DNA of 8,114 nucleotides from a virus (lineage: Duplodnaviria > Heunggongvirae > Uroviricota > Caudoviricetes). The position numbers were made by a program, and so were the translations under genes. Positions 1 through 8,114 of the stretch are shown here, piece after piece (position 1 is the stretch's first letter; the number at the start of each line of letters is the position of its first letter). The notes beneath the pieces were generated by a model. It was not told the origin of the DNA. It ran no database searches and saw only the letters and a program-made list of their open reading frames with translations. The DNA lies in the IMG/VR virus record IMGVR_UViG_2700989165_000007. One strand, 5' to 3'.

Positions 1-58
1 TAAGACTATCACTTAAATAAGTGATACTGGTTGTCTGGAGATTCAGGGGGCCAGTCTA
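1..58 (-). mobile_element. IS2 terminal fragment (left inverted-repeat end; body of the element lies beyond the window start)
   Basis: Reverse complement of 1-58 reads TAGACTGGCCCCCTGAATCTCCAGACAACCAGTATCACTTATTTAAGTGATAGTCTTA, which I recognise as the IS2 left terminus. Match is from memory, not an alignment. Unrelated sequence starts at 59. Confidence 0.6.
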
Positions 59-600
59 GCAGCTGCTCTACGGTCATATTTTTAATTGCGCTCCGGTTTA
101 CAAGAGCCCACCCCTGTTTTTCCAGATAAAACTGGAAAGTATCCAGGGTACAGACCAGTGCACCGTCAGGAACAGTTTCGGTGAATCTGATATTGCCGTG
201 TTCGTCGAAGTGCACAACCAGAGTGCGACCGTTACCCGGAATCATCTTGTCAGCGGACGGGGTATTATTCTGGTGCAGTTCTGCCTCCATGCGGTCGAAC
301 ATCAGCGATGTAGGCCTCTTTGAATGCAGCGGCTTTTTTCCCAGTGAAGCCCATCACCAGGAAAACGAAGCCGTTTTTGGTGATTTGGTACATTGGGCGT
401 TTTTCGCCTTTGGTGTCGGTGTAGGTGACGTCCTCAAAATTGAGGGCGTTAAATTCAGGTGAGCATTCAGTATTTGCGATGGCACGTAACACATTGTCGT
501 GTCGTTTGTGGAAGAACTCTGCAACCGCAACAGACGTAGTGACAGCGCGACCGTTTTCGATGGTTACGTCAGGGTGAGAAAGGGCAGGGATAGTAGCCAT
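59..600 (-). pseudogene. Rha-family phage regulatory protein (antirepressor-like), frameshifted near 300 and 3'-truncated by the IS2 insertion
   Basis: Minus-strand ATG at 598-600 with GAGGA about 7 nt upstream. Translation (MATIPALSHPDVTIENGRAVTTSVAVAEFFHKRHDNVLRAI...FNALNFEDVTYTD...KNGFVFLVMGFTGKKAAAFKEAYIA) fits the phage pRha domain pattern. This frame stops at TAA 265-267, but the expected continuation (FDRMEAELHQ...) is in another frame (ORF 9..302), implying a 1-nt indel near 300-303. That frame then runs into IS2 sequence at 58, so the last ~16 codons are IS-derived. Confidence 0.6.
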
Positions 601-765
601 GATGGCATCCTCGAGTGATAAGTTAATTAACTCACCACCGAGGTTTTCCACGACCATAAGGGTGGTGAGACGTACAGGGGTGGAAATACCGGTCACTCGA
701 GAACCCGGCCAGTCTTGCGACTGCCCTGCACATCCCACCATAATTTGAATGGAGCTGTGCATTAC

Positions 766-796
766 GCATAAAAAAACCGCTTCAGCGCGGCTATGC
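766..796 (-). terminator. Candidate intrinsic-terminator-like hairpin followed by a T7 tract (minus-strand sense)
   Basis: Minus-strand sense reads CGCATA-GCCGCGCTGAAGCGG-TTTTTTT-ATGCG. Inner stem CCGC/GCGG (4 bp, extendable with A-U and G-U pairs), then seven T; outer arms CGCATA/TATGCG (766-771 and 792-797 on the plus strand) enclose it. The stem is short, so this is weak. Confidence 0.2.
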
Positions 797-1301
797 GCTC
801 GAGTAACGTTCGGGTTTCCACGCCCGGCCCCCGTTTTATGAGGTGCAGATGCACTATAATTCCACCCGTTCTGGTTTTCAATAGCTACATTCAACATTTT
901 CTCTTACCTTTCATCACCGAAGTGAACTTTGTTGATGCGGTGCCTGGTGCCTCCAGGTGACGTTAACCAGTTAACAATTAACGCCGGATACAGGGAAACC
1001 CATAACCACCCGATACGTGGGAACTAATCGCTTTTTAACTGTTCCGCGTGCGCTCAGCCGCATTCACCGCATCACAAAATTCACTTTAAAAAGGGCGGAC
1101 ATCAGCCAGCAATGAAACTGATGCCGCCAAAGGTACCAATCAACATGGAGTGTTGTGGCGTGGTTGTCACTTAAGCGTATGGTCAACCTGACAACCCGGT
1201 GTCCTCAACGGGGAAGGAATAACTCCGCCATACTTACCGCCGCGTCATTTCGCGTTGTGTGCCTGCTTTTAACTACGTCAGGCGAGGTGGTTCCTGTTAT
1301 T

Positions 1302-1349
1302 CCCCAACAACAAGAAATTTGTATAATCTGAATACCCCAACAATAAGAA
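1302..1349 (+). promoter_or_regulatory. Candidate promoter: TATAAT -10 hexamer (1322-1327) bracketed by two 15-bp direct repeats CCCCAACAA(C/T)AAGAA
   Basis: Perfect TATAAT at 1322-1327 about 50 nt upstream of the ORF starting at 1374. Direct repeats at 1302-1316 and 1335-1349 differ at one position. No convincing -35 hexamer was found. Confidence 0.25.
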
Positions 1350-1373
1350 GAGTGAGCAAGTGATGTATTAGCG

Positions 1374-2037: not shown

Positions 2038-2561
2038 GTAAGCGCCCCATCAGCGACGTCTTGTGAAAATTGTCCTGTCTGGCAACAATCGCGCCCATCT
2101 ATATTGATGGACACGAACGATGAATTCCCAGACAACAAAAGATATTCCCTGCTTCCGTTCTTATTTGCCTGATGCCCTGCGTTTAAGATTTGAAGATAAA
2201 CTGACCATCCGGGCCATCGCTCAGCGTCTGGGTCTCAGTCATTCCACAATACATACGCTTTTTCAGCGATTTCTTGCATCCGGTATCGCATGGCCATTGC
2301 CCGATTCAGTTTCATTCGCTCAACTTGACGCCATCCTTTATGCCAACAGAAAGAAGGAATTAACAGAGCCTCAAATCAGAGAAGGCTCATGGCGAAAAGA
2401 ACGGCGAACCAGCTATAGCCGTGAATTTAAGGTCCGTCTGGCTAAGCAGGCATTACAGCCTGGGGCTGTTGTTGCCCGGATCGCCAGAGAACACGATATC
2501 AGGGATTTCAGTGCCCAGTACTCCCACCGGAACGTATATAGCATCCCCACAATTTTTCATT
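2038..2561 (+). mobile_element. IS element left end, IS66-family-like, with orfA; body of the element unresolved in the N-run
   Basis: Sequence from 2038 begins GTAAGCGCCCC; a terminal GTAAGCG is characteristic of IS66-family inverted repeats. An HTH transposase-accessory ORF starts 82 nt downstream. Family assignment is tentative and from memory. Confidence 0.35.
2120..2561 (+). CDS. IS transposase accessory protein (OrfA/TnpA-like, helix-turn-helix), partial; 3' end lost in the N-run
   Basis: Translation has two HTH-like segments: LTIRAIAQRLGLSHSTIHTLFQRF, and RRTSYSREFKVRLAKQALQPGAVVARIAREHDI. The second resembles the IS3/IS66 OrfA transposase_8 motif. The ORF runs without a stop into the Ns at 2562. 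Confidence 0.45.
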
Positions 2562-2904
2562 NNNNNNNNNNNNNNNNNNNNNNNNNNNNNNNNNNNNNNN
2601 NNNNNNNNNNNNNNNNNNNNNNNNNNNNNNNNNNNNNNNNNNNNNNNNNNNNNNNNNNNNNNNNNNNNNNNNNNNNNNNNNNNNNNNNNNNNNNNNNNNN
2701 NNNNNNNNNNNNNNNNNNNNNNNNNNNNNNNNNNNNNNNNNNNNNNNNNNNNNNNNNNNNNNNNNNNNNNNNNNNNNNNNNNNNNNNNNNNNNNNNNNNN
2801 NNNNNNNNNNNNNNNNNNNNNNNNNNNNNNNNNNNNNNNNNNNNNNNNNNNNNNNNNNNNNNNNNNNNNNNNNNNNNNNNNNNNNNNNNNNNNNNNNNNN
2901 NNNN
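2562..2904. other. Run of 343 N (unresolved or masked sequence); a second 10-N run at 2960-2969
   Basis: Directly visible. The X-filled ORFs in the track across this interval are artefacts. Confidence 0.99.
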
Positions 2905-2905
2905 C

Positions 2906-3089
2906 TCACTGGGCCGCCTGTCCCCGGTAGTCATGCTGGCAAAATCTGTCACAGCACAANNNNNNNNNNGCAGAACAGGAGGCGAAGCTGTTCACGTTTG
3001 AATGGAACGGTCGTATCTGGAATGCTGGTCCCGATTCACTGGGCCGCCTGTCCCCGGTAGTCATGCTGGCAAAATCTGTCACAGCACAA
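2906..3089. repeat. 54-bp exact direct repeat (2906-2959 and 3036-3089) flanking the 10-N gap
   Basis: TCACTGGGCCGCCTGTCCCCGGTAGTCATGCTGGCAAAATCTGTCACAGCACAA occurs twice, 130 bp apart. The first copy sits as an island between the two N runs. Confidence 0.9.
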
Positions 3090-3484: not shown

Positions 3485-4342
3485 CTAATTGGGTGATAAC
3501 AGATCCTGTGTATGGGCGTTTCCCTTTGTGCGTGCGTTGATGCTGGTAACGGTAAACGTCATGATGAACACGACCGCGAATAAGACGACAATCGTCGGAG
3601 CTGGTGCGCTGTCGATAAAAAAGGACAGCCAGACACCAGTCATTGACACTATTACCGATATGCCAGTCGCCAGTAGGAGCGCAATATGAAAGCGTTGTGT
3701 CAGGAGTACTGCAATGGCGCCAGGCGCAATGAGCAGAGAAATAGAGAGAATGATACCTACTGCTTTCAGCGTCGCCACAATGGTCAGGGAAACCATGCAC
3801 AGCAGCCCATAATGCAGCCATCTCGTATGCAAACCGCTTACCTGCGCCTGTTGATAATCAAAGCTGAACAGCAAAAAATCCCGCCATTTTACGCTAATAA
3901 CAAGTGTAACCAGCCCGGCAATAATCACCGTCTGGATTATATCGCCGATGGTTATCCCGAGCATGTCGCCGAAAAGAATATGGTCAAGATGTACGTCTGG
4001 TTTAATTGCAATATACAAGATCAGACCTGCGGCAAACATGCCAGAAAAAACAATCCCCATAACTGTATCTTGCTTGATTCGGCTGTTGTCTTTCAGGTAT
4101 CCCGTCGCCACCGCGCAGAATACTCCGGCGACGAATGCCCCTGTAGCCAGAGGTAACCCCAGAATCCAGGTAAGCACGATGCCAGGAAAAACCGCATGAC
4201 TCATCGCGTCACCCATCAGTGCCCAACCTTTCAGGACCAGAAAGACCGACAGCAGCGCACAGGGTATGGAAACTACCAGTGAAATCAGCAGTGCGTGACT
4301 CATAAAGGTGAACTGCAGTGGCTCCAGTAATAATGCCATCAT
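3485..4342 (-). CDS. sitD: Mn/Fe ABC transporter permease SitD (ABC-3 family membrane protein)
   Basis: 285 aa, highly hydrophobic multi-helix translation. Start overlaps the sitC stop in an ATGA arrangement (4339-4342). Last gene of a four-gene binding-protein/ATPase/permease/permease operon. Confidence 0.85.
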   Translation of the reverse strand: MMALLLEPLQFTFMSHALLISLVVSIPCALLSVFLVLKGWALMGDAMSHAVFPGIVLTWILGLPLATGAFVAGVFCAVATGYLKDNSRIKQDTVMGIVFSGMFAAGLILYIAIKPDVHLDHILFGDMLGITIGDIIQTVIIAGLVTLVISVKWRDFLLFSFDYQQAQVSGLHTRWLHYGLLCMVSLTIVATLKAVGIILSISLLIAPGAIAVLLTQRFHIALLLATGISVIVSMTGVWLSFFIDSAPAPTIVVLFAVVFIMTFTVTSINARTKGNAHTQDLLSPN

Positions 4343-5196
4343 GAGCGATCCTCCAGCGCTTTATGCGCACGCCGACGATTTGCCAAAAGTCCATGGGTGG
4401 GCGCAAATACAAATGCTAAAAGAAACAGCAGTGTCTGCGCCACCACGATGATTCCACCTGTCGCGCCGTCCAGAAAGTAACTGACCCACGCGCCGAGGAA
4501 ACTGGTTACACTGCCAATAGTTACAGCAATTATGAGCAGGCGGGGAAAACGATCGGTTAACAACCATGCTGTTGCACCGGGAGTCACCACCAGACAGATC
4601 ACCAGAAACGCACCAACCGTTTGCAGCGCCGCAACGGTCGAAACCGACAGCAGGGTGAAGAAGAGGATTTTTAATCTGCCCGGATGTAATCCAATAGCAC
4701 GGGCGTGATTCTCGTCGAAAAAGGTCACCATAAGATCTTTCCATTTGAAAAAAAGCACGATGATCGAGAGAATGCCAATGATAGTGAGTTGCAGGATATC
4801 CGCCGGATCGATTGCCAGAATATTGCCCAGGACGATGGTCTGAATGTTCACGGATGTCGGGTTCAATGACACCATAAACAGCCCCAGGCCAAAAAAGGAC
4901 GAGAAGATCAGGCCGATGATGGCATCTTCTTTTAAGCGGGTGCGTTGGTTAAGAAACAGCATGCTGCCCGCTGCCAGTCCGCCGGAAAAGAAGGCTCCCA
5001 GAGAAAACGGAAGCCCCAGCATATATGCCCCCGCAACACCCGGGACAATAGAGTGCGACAGCGCATCGCCAATCAGCGACCAGCCTTTTAGCATCAGATA
5101 GCATGACAGGAAAGCGCAGAGACCGCCGACCATTGCCGAGACCCACATCGCATTGAGCATATATTCATAGCTGAAGGGTTCCAGTAGCACGTTCAT
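4339..5196 (-). CDS. sitC: Mn/Fe ABC transporter permease SitC (ABC-3 family membrane protein)
   Basis: 285 aa hydrophobic protein, paralogous in pattern to the downstream permease. ATGA overlap with the sitB stop (5193-5196). Confidence 0.85.
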
Positions 5197-6020
5197 CTTG
5201 CTTCCCTCTGCACCGCTGACGGTCGATGTGCCACAAAAGGGCGTTCATCGTCAGTAATAATGCTTTCTTCCGAGCCGTTAAGTGTGACATGGCGCAGTAC
5301 GCCGCTAAAAGCCAGCTCCAGGTTCTCGGCTGTAAAAGTGGTGTCTGTCGGCCCGCTTGCCAGGACGGTGCCTTTGACCATGACCGTATAATCGCAAAAT
5401 GTCGTGACTGAGCCGAGATTGTGCGTTGAGACAAGCATCGTTTTGCCTTCCGCGCGTAACTCCCTCAACAGGCTGATGATTTTCGCTTCGGTTTTCACAT
5501 CAACGCCGGTAAAAGGTTCATCCAGCAGGATCACATCACCCTGCTGTGCAATTGCTCTCGCCAGAAAGACGCGTTTCTTTTGTCCACCGGAAAGCTCGCC
5601 GATTTGACGATGGCGAAAATCCACCATATCGACACGTTCCAGCGCATCGGTGACAATCTGACGATCCCTCTTTTTGGCTATACGCAACATACCCATATGC
5701 CCATAGCGGCCCATCATCACCACATCTTCCACCAGTACAGGAAATGACCAGTCAACCTCTTCTGACTGAGGGACGTAGGCAACCAGGTTTTTCTGTAGCG
5801 CCTGTCGCGTGGGAATACCCAGAACAGATATCTTTCCGCTGGTCAGACGCACAAATCCCATAATCGCTTTAAACAACGTCGATTTTCCGGAACCGTTTAC
5901 CCCAACCAGAGCGGCAATAGATCCACTTGGTACTGTGAAGGATGCATCGCGCAGTGCTGTGTGCCCGTTACGCCAGGTGACAGTAACATCATTAACGACA
6001 ATGCCTGCAGATTGCATCAT
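5193..6020 (-). CDS. sitB: Mn/Fe ABC transporter ATP-binding protein SitB
   Basis: 275 aa with Walker A (GVNGSGKST), ABC signature (LSGGQKKR) and Walker B ([11 protein letters not shown]). GGGAGAA ribosome-binding site inside the 3' end of sitA. Start overlaps the sitA stop by 1 nt. Confidence 0.9.
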
Positions 6021-6934
6021 TATTTCTCCCTTTTCCCGGCTTTAATTCCCTGTACCAGCGTACTGGTAGTAACCTTAAGAAGGTCGATATACGTAGGTAC
6101 CGGGCCGTTTTCTGTGCTCAGGGAATCGACATAGAGCACACCGCCGTAGTGTGCGCCGGTTTCACGCGCAACCTGACGCGCTGGTTTATCGGAAATCGTA
6201 CTCTCGCTAAAGACTGCCGGGATATGATTTTTCTTAACTATATCAACAACCTTACGTACCTGCTGCGGTGTTCCTTGTTGATCGGCATTAATCGGCCACA
6301 GATAAAGCTCTTTTAGCCCCAAATCGCGTGCGAGATAAGAAAAAGCCCCTTCACTGGTGACCATCCATCGCTGATTCTCAGGGAGTTCCGTAATCTGCTT
6401 ACGCAGGGGGGCAAGGGTTTGGGTAATCTTGGCTTTATAAGTATCGGCATTACGTTGGTAGGTTTGTGCATTTGCCGGATCGTATTTTATCAACGCATCA
6501 CGAATATTATCGACGTAAATCAGAGCATTATCTGGCGACATCCATGCATGGGGATTAGGTTTGCCCTCATAGGGTCCTTCGGTGATCCCTACTGGCGTCA
6601 CACCCGAAGAGACAATTACTTCTGGAACCCCATTGAGATGCTGGTAAAAGCGTTGGAACCACAATTCCAGATTCATACCATTGGCGAGAATCAGTTGTGC
6701 CCCCTGCGCACGTTTAATATCGCCAGGGGTAGGCTGATACTCATGAATTTCTGCACCAGGCTTGGTTATGGATGAGACTTCTGCAGCATCTCCAGCCACG
6801 TTTTTGGCCATATCCGCGATGATGGTAAATGTTGTAATGACCTTGAATTTTTCAGTTGCACTTGCCTGAAATGCGATCGAGCAGGTGAGGGCGAGGCACC
6901 CCAAGAGCATGGTTACTTTTTTTATTGAGTGCAT
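6020..6934 (-). CDS. sitA: Periplasmic Mn/Fe-binding protein SitA (TroA-like cluster A-I substrate-binding protein)
   Basis: 304 aa with an N-terminal signal peptide ([26 protein letters not shown]). Gene order and sizes (304/275/285/285) fit SitABCD. The symbol is assigned from recognition, not a search. Confidence 0.85.
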
Positions 6935-7220: not shown

Positions 7221-7428
7221 GGTTATCGTAGCTTATTGTTGTCGCTGATAATGTTTAACATATTGAAAAATAAATAAAATACTTATGAGTCAGATAGTTG
7301 TGATTTTTGCCCTTACTTGTTCAGGTCGTATTGTTCTTTCTTTGTAATTTGTTGATTTTCTTGCATTATTTCAGTTCTCTGGTACTAAATGGGGCAAATT
7401 GGGGGCAAACTTTGCAACTACGATAACC
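7221..7428. repeat. 11-bp inverted repeat pair GGTTATCGTAG (7221-7231) and CTACGATAACC (7418-7428)
   Basis: Exact reverse complements. Each arm lies just 3' of a GGGGCAAA cluster. The right arm contains the integrase stop codon (7418-7420). Confidence 0.85.
7391..7409 (+). repeat. Two further GGGGCAAA copies (7391-7398 and 7401-7409); an inverted copy TTTTTGCCC sits at 7305-7313
   Basis: Same motif as the tandem array, about 180 bp away, just upstream of the integrase stop codon. Confidence 0.85.
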
Positions 7429-8057
7429 GCGCATTCAACATGGCTATCTGTTCGTCGTTCATGTCATCAATCCACATACCGTAAATTTCATACACCATTT
7501 GCGCAGTTTCATGCCCCATCTGGCTGGCTATAAATGCCGGGTTCGCTCCTGCCGTCAACAGCCAGCAGGCAAAAGTATGTCGCGTGTGGTACGGATTACG
7601 GCGGCGAATACCAGCACGTTTTACTGCTGCATTCCATCTTGTACCCAAACTGCTTACCGAGTAATAAGGTTTCTGTTTTTCGTTACACACCCTGGGCATG
7701 AAAACAAAATGCAGTTTTTGTTTTTCAGTTCTGCCGTACTCCCGATGATAAAAAGTGATTTCGCTTTTGCGATGATGCCCGGTCAGTTTGTATTGCTCCT
7801 TCAGTGCTTCAAGAGCCGGCTGCAGTAATGTTACCGTCCGGATCCCGGCATTTGTTTTTGGGGGACCGAACATATCAAGTATCGTCAGGTTTCTTCTGAC
7901 ATTCACAATTCCCTTCTCGAAATCCACATCCTCCCACGCCAGAGCTGCCAGTTCCCCGTGACGAAGCCCGGAGTAAACGGCAAATTTCCACAAGTTTTGG
8001 CTCTGTCCTTTTTCACTTTCCATTAATGCATTGAATTCTGTTTTAGATAACGGGTCA
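7418..8057 (-). pseudogene. Tyrosine recombinase (phage integrase) C-terminal catalytic domain; N-terminal part removed by the IS1 insertion
   Basis: Translation carries integrase catalytic-domain motifs (SGLRHGELAALAWEDVD; HTRHTFACWLL; VYEIYGMW). Only about 213 native codons remain. The apparent TTG start at 8069-8071 is inside IS1 sequence, and an in-frame stop lies at 8081-8083. Confidence 0.7.
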
Positions 8058-8114
8058 GGTAATGCTGCCAACTTACTGATTTAGTGTATGATGGTGATTT
8101 TAAGGTGCTTGCGT
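8058..8114 (+). mobile_element. IS1 terminal fragment (inverted-repeat end; element continues beyond the window end)
   Basis: GGTAATGCTGCCAACTTACTGATTTAGTGTATGATGGTG matches the IS1 terminal inverted repeat and adjacent sequence as I recall it, with isoform-level differences. Confidence 0.7.

Follow-up and report, generated by a model that had tools for sequence, protein, structure and literature searches.

Known prophage RNA elements upstream of a frameshifted rha gene: a probable IsrK-C4 immunity module beside a DicF-like unit in a decayed lambdoid prophage

The window analyzed here, an 8,114-nucleotide stretch of DNA held as IMG/VR virus record IMGVR_UViG_2700989165_000007, belongs to a decayed lambdoid prophage that adjoins sitABCD, and the region of interest is a 773-bp interval (positions 601–1373) between a minus-strand antirepressor gene of the Rha family (265–600) and a plus-strand gene (1374–1820). 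Decay of the prophage is evident from the end of a multicopy element at positions 1–64, a transposase-like ORF at 2120–3001, and a neighboring gene split by a nonsense codon. The plus-strand gene matches the PHROG family phrog_1244, and in homologous E. coli loci a plus-strand hypothetical gene begins at the same border. Part of the 773-bp region is matched in 4,674 of 5,426 complete E. coli genomes, at a median of two places per genome. Positions 930–300 recur as identical sequences in four IMG/VR viral contigs and as near-identical sequences in Shigella flexneri genomes; the Rha product is 100% identical to its S. flexneri counterpart, and positions 930–540 are 99.7% identical to one S. flexneri genome.

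The Rha domain is recognized by both Pfam (PF09669, Phage_pRha; E 7.9e-28) and NCBIfam (TIGR02681), and the gene is assigned a nested start at ATG 600. In the window a single extra T near position 301 shifts its frame after codon 100; the insertion is seen as a one-base gap relative to homologues, and Rha is thus a pseudogene in this window. For the DNA upstream of it, the original prediction had proposed a small-RNA or immunity-control region beside the antirepressor gene, and the Rfam scan suggested at that time agrees with it: C4 and isrK score above their cut-offs directly upstream of Rha, DicF and STnc100 score below theirs farther upstream, and all four lie on the minus strand.

The IsrK/P4-SeqA-type small RNA (846–770, minus strand) is identified by a full-length match to Rfam RF01394 (59.6 bits against a cut-off of 50; model positions 1–77 of 77), by a terminator scan, and by helix pairing. 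It is preceded on the same strand by a promoter-like site (881–853) that consists of TTGAAA (881–876), a 17-nt spacer, and TATAGT (858–853), with 10 of 12 consensus matches in the promoter scan. This site is nearly invariant among 40 unique homologues and implies a start near 846, the first base of the isrK match; the annotated -10 of P4 occupies the same position relative to the isrK-family match of that phage. At the other end, the terminator scan returns an intrinsic terminator (stem 792–775, with U7 at 776–770), to which the predicted fold adds an outer GCAUA/UAUGC pairing; the nested stem-loop followed by seven T that had been noticed in the minus-strand sense is therefore present and is the terminator of IsrK. 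Promoter and terminator are both predicted from consensus matches only, and the two sites fall exactly at the ends of IsrK. The IsrK helices are 98.9–100% paired across 29 sequences, with an A-G mismatch in the first hairpin of the window copy that only 2 of the 29 sequences share. Two short segments of this RNA recur below: a1 (821–815, GUGGAAA), in the loop of the second hairpin, and b1 (806–798, UUACUCGAG). The TATAAT reported at 855–860 does exist on the plus strand, which is the wrong strand for IsrK and C4, and it is probably incidental; it overlaps the TATAGT -10 box (858–853) of the minus-strand promoter-like site.

Downstream of IsrK lies a C4/P4-CI-type antisense RNA (745–658, minus strand), which matches Rfam RF01695 over the complete model (76.7 bits against a cut-off of 45; positions 1–87 of 87; E 3.9e-14). 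A 17-bp outer stem encloses two inner hairpins; the 12-nt loop of the second hairpin (704–693) presents the segment b', which includes CUCGAGUGA, and the 3' junction (686–680) presents a' (UUUCCAC). Pairing among the 29 sequences reaches 99.6% in the outer stem, 99.3% in hairpin 1, and 100% in hairpin 2; two pairs of hairpin 1 have changed on both sides, and the changes in the outer stem are mostly one-sided (G-U wobble). RNAs of the C4 type are excised by RNase P in P1/P7 and P4, and by analogy the C4 of this locus is probably excised from a longer transcript as a stable RNA. The separate Rfam c4-a1b1 model reached 18.3 bits at this locus, under its cut-off of 46.7.

Between C4 and the Rha start, the minus-strand Rha leader (601–657) carries two further segments, recognized by their complementarity to a' and b' and by duplex prediction. 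The first, a2 (651–645, GUGGAAA), is exactly complementary to a' and has the same motif as a1 in IsrK; the second, b2 (618–608, UCACUCGAGGA), is exactly complementary to b', with a predicted duplex of -18.2 kcal/mol. Segment b2 overlaps a Shine-Dalgarno sequence, GAGGA (612–608), placed 7 nt ahead of the ATG at 600–598.

These pairings were evaluated in 160 related loci, from which 29 distinct sequences spanning 870–580 were aligned. Variation among the homologues is concentrated in six short a and b blocks that change together. When the helices, a1-a', and b1-b' are combined, 98.8% of cells pair, compared with 37–45% in slid controls. Five of the seven a1-a' pairs have changed on both sides with 100% of cells still pairing, as have six of the nine b1-b' pairs with 94.3% pairing; because the homologues are mutually related (84–100% identity), these counts represent a limited number of block replacements and not many independent events. 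The co-variation across homologues supports the proposal that C4 pairs with the IsrK sites a1 and b1. The column-based count for b'-b2 failed (55% paired, and 85.6% at a slide of -2), since b2 occurs in two registers among the homologues, so b'-b2 and a'-a2 were evaluated by duplex prediction in place of the column count. A cognate b2 duplex is predicted in all 29 homologues, and each includes GAGG at 5–8 nt before the AUG. Across ten types of b' loop, cognate duplexes average -15.2 kcal/mol versus -7.7 for non-cognate ones, with the cognate partner best or tied-best in 10 of 10 rows for b2 and 9 of 10 for b1. Pairing of C4 with the Rha ribosome-binding site is thus supported by predicted duplexes.

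The same stretch of DNA is also open for translation, and the earlier statement that it holds no credible ORF needs qualification on this point. A 210-aa minus-strand ORF (265–897) reaches 99 codons into the region, in phase with Rha; its start, ATG 897–895, lies upstream of the IsrK -35 (881), and its eta/Ash-like upstream part (601–897) crosses both IsrK and C4. It could accordingly be proposed that 601–897 encodes an "Ash" domain at the N terminus of an Ash-Rha protein of 284 aa and that the RNA matches are incidental. The ORF list and several annotation resources speak for such a protein: in RefSeq, the Rha CDS of two homologous E. coli loci (L001 and L002) is drawn by PGAP as this longer frame, Pfam places residues 14–109 in PF10554 (Phage_ASH, E 5.9e-17), and hits to several PHROG families span the stretch. 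Of 40 unique homologues, 37 also keep the frame open over 100 codons or more, and new stop codons upstream of Rha number one in the Rha phase versus 9 and 11 in the other two phases (38 of the 40 homologues, two frameshifted singletons being left out), for a binomial P of about 0.002 that is only rough because the events are not all independent. From this pattern of stops, the long frame appears to be kept open by selection.

The Ash part of the putative protein, in contrast, shows no amino-acid constraint. Among the 40 unique homologues, variable sites at codon positions 1, 2, and 3 number 37, 37, and 38 in the Ash part, against 34, 26, and 70 in the Rha part. Pairwise comparisons of the window point the same way: differences in the Ash and Rha parts are 21/20/27 and 28/25/52 relative to mEp460, 39/37/43 and 11/6/14 relative to SfV, and 18/20/20 and 4/3/9 relative to L002, and the Ash part is likewise flat relative to L001. 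Moreover, a promoter and a U7 intrinsic terminator are predicted inside the frame, and its variation sits in the very blocks that co-vary as RNA pairing partners. Of 40 loci scanned in diverse genomes, 24 have a C4 or sRNA-Xcc1 match immediately ahead of a Rha homologue, and just 2 of these 24 have a leader that is open in the phase of Rha. The Pfam family itself traces to the "putative ash gene" described for P4 in 1984, a gene that extends across the CI RNA region. When the 99 upstream residues were searched by tblastn, the matches included this P4 gene, N15 gp32, and the long Rha-type ORFs of mEp460 and SfV; at these places in all four phages, isrK and C4 both score above cut-off, so that P4 seqA is a member of the isrK family and P4 CI one of the C4 family, a relationship already noted in PMC10111431. 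P1 was not among the matches listed for this search. An Ash-Rha protein with incidental RNA matches is, on balance, very unlikely. The long frame does not evolve like a protein, and the working Rha start at position 600 is therefore defensible; nor is the region simply degraded coding sequence of a known phage gene, the outcome that would have spoken against an RNA-based reading.

For the long frame we prefer the precedent of P4 eta, in which the act of translation would matter and the peptide would not. In P4, a frame that begins ahead of the internal promoter is translated through the RNA genes when transcription arrives from further upstream, the eta/kil logic summarized in PMC10111431. An open Ash-Rha frame and an RNA module would on this analogy be compatible and not mutually exclusive, since P4 eta is itself translated through its RNA genes. 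Within the frame, an internal AUG (741–739) is in phase in 39 of 40 unique sequences, and the frame continues from it into Rha with no AUGA overlap. Gene callers and Pfam take the isrK-C4 stretch for an N-terminal "Ash" part of Rha-type proteins, and, given that the stretch shows no amino-acid constraint here, an "Ash domain" annotation is better read as a marker of an RNA immunity module. The P4 ash ORF matches PF10554; P4 epsilon does not match it, though PF10554 has served as an epsilon marker. Another small frame, a 45-aa ORF at 632–769, was considered as a coding candidate and set aside; it lies in a different phase from the counterpart of Gifsy-1 orf45 and has no family match.

Upstream of this module, positions 1254–919 form a separate, older unit on the minus strand, composed of a DicF precursor leader (1142–1254), a DicF-like RNA (1093–1141), and a structured leader (919–1092). 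The window aligns at 83% from 1254 to 923 with the Qin prophage of E. coli K-12 (locus L003, from 2264 onward), through the sequence upstream of dicF, dicF itself, and the dicF-dicB intergenic region, and the alignment ends about 18 nt short of dicB. The match to the DicF family (Rfam RF00039; 1141–1093) is under the cut-off, at 38.8 bits against 48 (E 8.3e-06), compared with 76.7 bits for K-12 dicF, and the RNA is filed as a DicF-like variant on synteny with Qin dicF and flanking homology only. It has its own intrinsic terminator in the terminator scan (stem 1125–1098, then a T run) and a divergent body. RNAduplex runs of the whole DicF-like RNA against the ftsZ leader gave long, non-specific duplexes that did not outdo those of shuffled sequences, a fraction of 0.11–0.13 of which were at least as good. 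In Qin, the DicF precursor is a 190-nt RNase III product that is trimmed by RNase E (PMC10448788), and positions 1142–1254, aligned to the Qin sequence, may be processed in a comparable manner.

The structured leader (1092–919) is homologous to the Qin dicF-dicB intergenic region and is described here from alignment, fold, and pair counts. It resembles STnc100, with a match (Rfam RF02076; 1081–928; model positions 22–154 of 206) of 36.5 bits that is under the cut-off of 47, as is that of the Qin counterpart (34.4 bits). The fold z-score is -4.0, and pair counts over 39 unique sequences show a 22-bp closing helix (1086–1065 with 942–920) that is 99.2% paired; a CCUGG/CCAGG hairpin pairs 957–953 with 947–943. 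The middle of the leader (approximately 1034–990) is hypervariable, and the helices predicted there are unsupported by the pair counts.

Within this leader lies the TTAAC triple that had been noticed as part of the presumed immunity-control region. Three copies are indeed present (963–967, 971–975, and 978–982), at a spacing of 8 and then 7 bp and not a uniform 8, and the exact pattern has a single occurrence in the window, whereas 200 shuffles did not reproduce it. The three repeats make up one hairpin that is 96.9% paired, the first and third giving its stem (985–976 with 968–959) and the second lying in its loop (GUUAACU, 975–969), with three doubly changed pairs that all belong to one variant lineage; the triple is identical in K-12 Qin. 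GTTAAC is palindromic, and an inverted repeat in DNA would suit a dimeric protein, so the triple could alternatively be a DNA operator whose direct or inverted repeats are recognized by a regulator; the near invariance of the repeats in the 39 unique sequences, K-12 Qin included, would fit such a site. Against an operator, the sole variant (L103 and L154) changes three adjacent positions in each arm and keeps the pairing (TTA to CAG with TAA to CTG), although this co-variation is thin evidence because it is a single event. The repeats are furthermore enclosed in a leader closed by the well-paired 22-bp helix, and the promoter scan found no promoter-like site adjacent to them. An operator is thus highly doubtful, and the pairing and the homology to Qin instead point to one RNA hairpin of a conserved leader, within a unit after dicF that is separate from the immunity module.

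Several other candidates in this part of the region were weighed and gained no support. A 30-aa small protein in the dicF leader (ATG 1063 to TAA 971) is unsupported, as its frame is found in 26 of 39 unique sequences but in only 9 of 17 types of the middle segment, the conserved ends show no variation at any codon position, and a suitably spaced Shine-Dalgarno sequence is absent. The 22-bp closing helix was considered as the RNase III site that makes DicF; the published RNase III cut lies upstream of DicF (PMC10448788), so a nuclease role for the helix would be pure inference. A dicB remnant was also set aside: PGAP annotates a partial DicB at the equivalent of 927–1001 in E. coli A19, and in K-12 that stretch is the non-coding dicB leader. 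Positions 879–857 show weak similarity to mid-dicB (E 0.039 in a tiny search). The remaining intergenic spacer (1255–1373), between the minus-strand dicF unit and the plus-strand gene at 1374–1820, yielded no Rfam match and no conserved ORF.

Taken together, positions 897–601 are very probably an RNA-based immunity (anti-induction) module of the kind found in P1 c4, P4 CI, N15, and Gifsy-1 IsrK, with Rha as the gene under control. The family matches, the conservation of structure, the co-variation of a1/b1 with a'/b', the predicted a2/b2 pairing, the overlap of b2 with the ribosome-binding site, and the unconstrained open frame were all computed here. The isrK-C4-rha module is well formed, ordinary, and already known, given that its RNAs belong to curated Rfam families, that this type of locus has been dissected in Gifsy-1, P4, and P1, and that it is nearly ubiquitous in E. 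coli. The seemingly empty interval of about 770 bp is fully explained by known prophage RNA elements.

Experimentally studied relatives suggest how such a module may work, from transcription and processing to the sign of regulation and the translation of the long frame. A constitutive promoter (881–853) would start transcription near 846, and most transcripts would end at the intrinsic terminator to give an RNA of about 77 nt of the IsrK/SeqA type that carries a1 and b1. Transcripts that read through would contain the C4/CI-type RNA (745–658), whose exposed segments, b' in the hairpin loop and a' in the junction, would pair with b2 and a2 in the Rha leader. The Shine-Dalgarno sequence is covered by b2, so such pairing would block translation of Rha, and transcription would then probably end early; the mode of repression may be a translation block (P1-like) or termination (P4-like). 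IsrK would compete for C4, since it offers the same two sites as a1 and b1, and an excess of IsrK would free the Rha ribosome-binding site, as in Gifsy-1. Transcripts from an upstream operon could be translated from ATG 897 through the control region and so escape repression, like P4 eta, a logic of translation through the RNA genes that was reportedly set out by Forti et al. in 1999.

In the window itself, Rha is frameshifted and the prophage is cut by insertion sequences, so the module may have nothing left to control in cis, and only trans effects of C4 and IsrK could remain. It is a short step from here to regarding the whole stretch as an inert relic in a decayed prophage, with a dead Rha and RNAs that are no longer made or active, and the Rha frameshift, the multicopy element end, the transposase-like ORF, the nonsense-split neighbor, and the sub-cut-off scores of the DicF-like and STnc100-like matches would all be consistent with this. 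Yet the window has lost none of the parts of the module, its promoter, terminator, helices, and six pairing sites all being intact, and positions 930–300 are preserved identically in the four IMG/VR contigs and nearly so in the S. flexneri genomes. In addition, P1/P7 and Gifsy-1 provide precedents for trans action by C4 and IsrK, and the loss of a cis target would therefore not alone silence them. We consider an inert relic unlikely.

The a and b types, at least four and ten in number, are mixed independently of each other in E. coli and Shigella prophages. This raises the rather speculative idea, which we hold to be unlikely as it stands, that specificity is encoded by combinations of a and b sites and that relic modules are nodes in an RNA cross-immunity network between prophages. 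If so, resident modules, even ones with a dead Rha, would reach in trans to phages of matching type, whether these share the host or are just entering it: C4 would veto and IsrK would trigger the antirepressors of other phages, and the open frame would be a built-in bypass. The clear modularity of the a and b types in itself offers a simple way to read from sequence which prophages could cross-talk through their C4 and IsrK RNAs.

Among the known systems, the isrK-orf45-anrP locus of Gifsy-1 in Salmonella has an isrK-family RNA with its own promoter and a leaky terminator, then a C4-type element and an antirepressor gene; the locus described here has these elements in the same order, with a promoter and a terminator predicted at the ends of its IsrK. 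Supplied in trans, IsrK (STnc1160) raises anrP translation 139-fold (Hershko-Shalev et al. 2016, PMC4825925). The middle part of Gifsy-1 IsrK is complementary to a downstream element, and the compensatory mutants G28A/C162U and G31A/C159U (PMC4825925) map to a1-a' at our locus, where G28/C162 and G31/C159 have their counterparts. The first AUG of orf45, at +107, corresponds to AUG 741 (approximately +106) in the window. Antirepressor translation in Gifsy-1 requires translation of orf45 (PMC4825925), which ends in an AUGA overlap with anrP, whereas the frame of AUG 741 runs on into Rha. The window also differs in that the module follows a DicF-like RNA in a Qin-like operon and in that its Rha is frameshifted.

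The P4 immunity region (PLE, seqA, CI RNA, seqC, and nested eta/kil) shares the placement of a promoter inside a long ORF that begins upstream of it and crosses the RNA genes; P4 seqA matches isrK, CI matches C4, and the translated region matches PF10554. What follows downstream in P4 is Kil/Eta, then epsilon and alpha, and not Rha. Immunity in P4 relies mainly on premature termination, whereas b2 at our locus lies on the Rha ribosome-binding site, an arrangement closer to that of P1. In the immI region of P1/P7 (c4, icd, and ant1/ant2), the partners of a' and b' are a1/b1 on the upstream side and a2/b2 on the downstream side, b2 likewise lies at a ribosome-binding site, and a processed antisense RNA controls an antirepressor, with processing at our locus suggested by family membership. 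Citron and Schuster reportedly found in 1990 that the specificity of P1/P7 heteroimmunity is set by a few bases, as it would be at our locus. Unlike in P1/P7, no icd lies between C4 and the antirepressor in the window, and a Rha-family antirepressor stands in place of Ant. Finally, the Qin dicBF operon of E. coli K-12 shares the DicF precursor leader, dicF, the intergenic leader, and the TTAAC triple with the upstream unit of the window; it differs in that the body of DicF is divergent in the window and the isrK-C4-rha cassette replaces dicB, and in E. coli A19 an intact dicB follows rha.

The isrK-C4 module, which precedes the Rha antirepressor gene on the minus strand of the window, is a mobile cassette. 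Its place in Qin-like prophages is between the dicF leader and dicB (3244-4401 in L001, the E. coli A19 locus), while in phages mEp460 (L166) and SfV (L167) it sits mid-way inside a long ORF that belongs to the cro-side operon and overlaps the gene before it; the C-terminal part of this ORF in SfV returned no Rha match in Pfam. Shigella flexneri CP182556 carries a second isrK-C4-rha module in the same genome (888979-894278; L006), whose specificity blocks are unlike those of the window (a type UUGCUAC and b type UGACUAUCG). Since cross-pairing between the L006 and window types is predicted to be weak (about -5 to -8 kcal/mol), the two modules would be heteroimmune.

At position 829 on the minus strand, the window's IsrK carries a G in place of the U found in 27 of 29 homologues; as a result, its first hairpin has an A-G mismatch in place of an A-U pair. 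The Rha gene (265-600, minus strand) contains one extra T near position 301 relative to every homologue compared; because of this single base the frame is lost after codon 100, with the C-terminal part carrying on as an ORF at 9..302, and Rha in the window is a pseudogene. Homology to Rha-type genes ends at position 64. The stretch 1-64, which E. coli genomes carry at 18,455 places on both chromosomes and plasmids, is the terminal part of a multicopy element, presumably the IS2 terminal repeat.

The interval from the DicF-like RNA to the TTAAC hairpin holds a 30-aa ORF (MRLSARGTVK...SGVNC; 971-1063, minus strand), for which no usable Shine-Dalgarno sequence was found. Of 39 unique homologues, 26 keep this frame despite a hypervariable middle, and K-12 Qin is among the 26 (with a version 26 aa long); when distinct middle types are counted, only 9 of 17 are in frame. 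A plus-strand gene that belongs to PHROG family 1244 (1374-1820; unknown function, 157-position profile) carries an in-frame TAA at 1608-1610, which leaves it as two ORFs, 78 and 69 aa long; its E. coli homologues are single ORFs of 148-170 aa, and weak zinc-ribbon-like matches fall in its second half. Farther along, near 1977, an IS3-family-like end stands ahead of an ORF (2120-3001) that is transposase-like and has an HTH_Tnp_1 domain, and sitABCD (3485-6934) is flanked by a phage integrase fragment (7418-8071).

In several loci (L009, L011, L017, L018, L025, L040, and L046; about 2340-2470), the RNA reported directly 5' of Rha is not C4 but Rfam sRNA-Xcc1 (RF02221). These sRNA-Xcc1/Rha loci belong to Morganella, Providencia, Edwardsiella, Pantoea, Arsenophonus, Phlomobacter, and Symbiopectobacter. 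The two RNAs seem to fill the same niche, and their families may be related. In phage P4 itself (X02534; L164), the old "putative ash gene" spans the CI RNA region and matches Pfam PF10554 (Ash), whereas epsilon matches PF25738 and not PF10554 (positions 1324-1737 and 1730-2017). A survey of P4-like satellites used PF10554 as the epsilon marker (PMC8628076); given these matches, what the marker in fact labels is the eta/immunity-RNA region.
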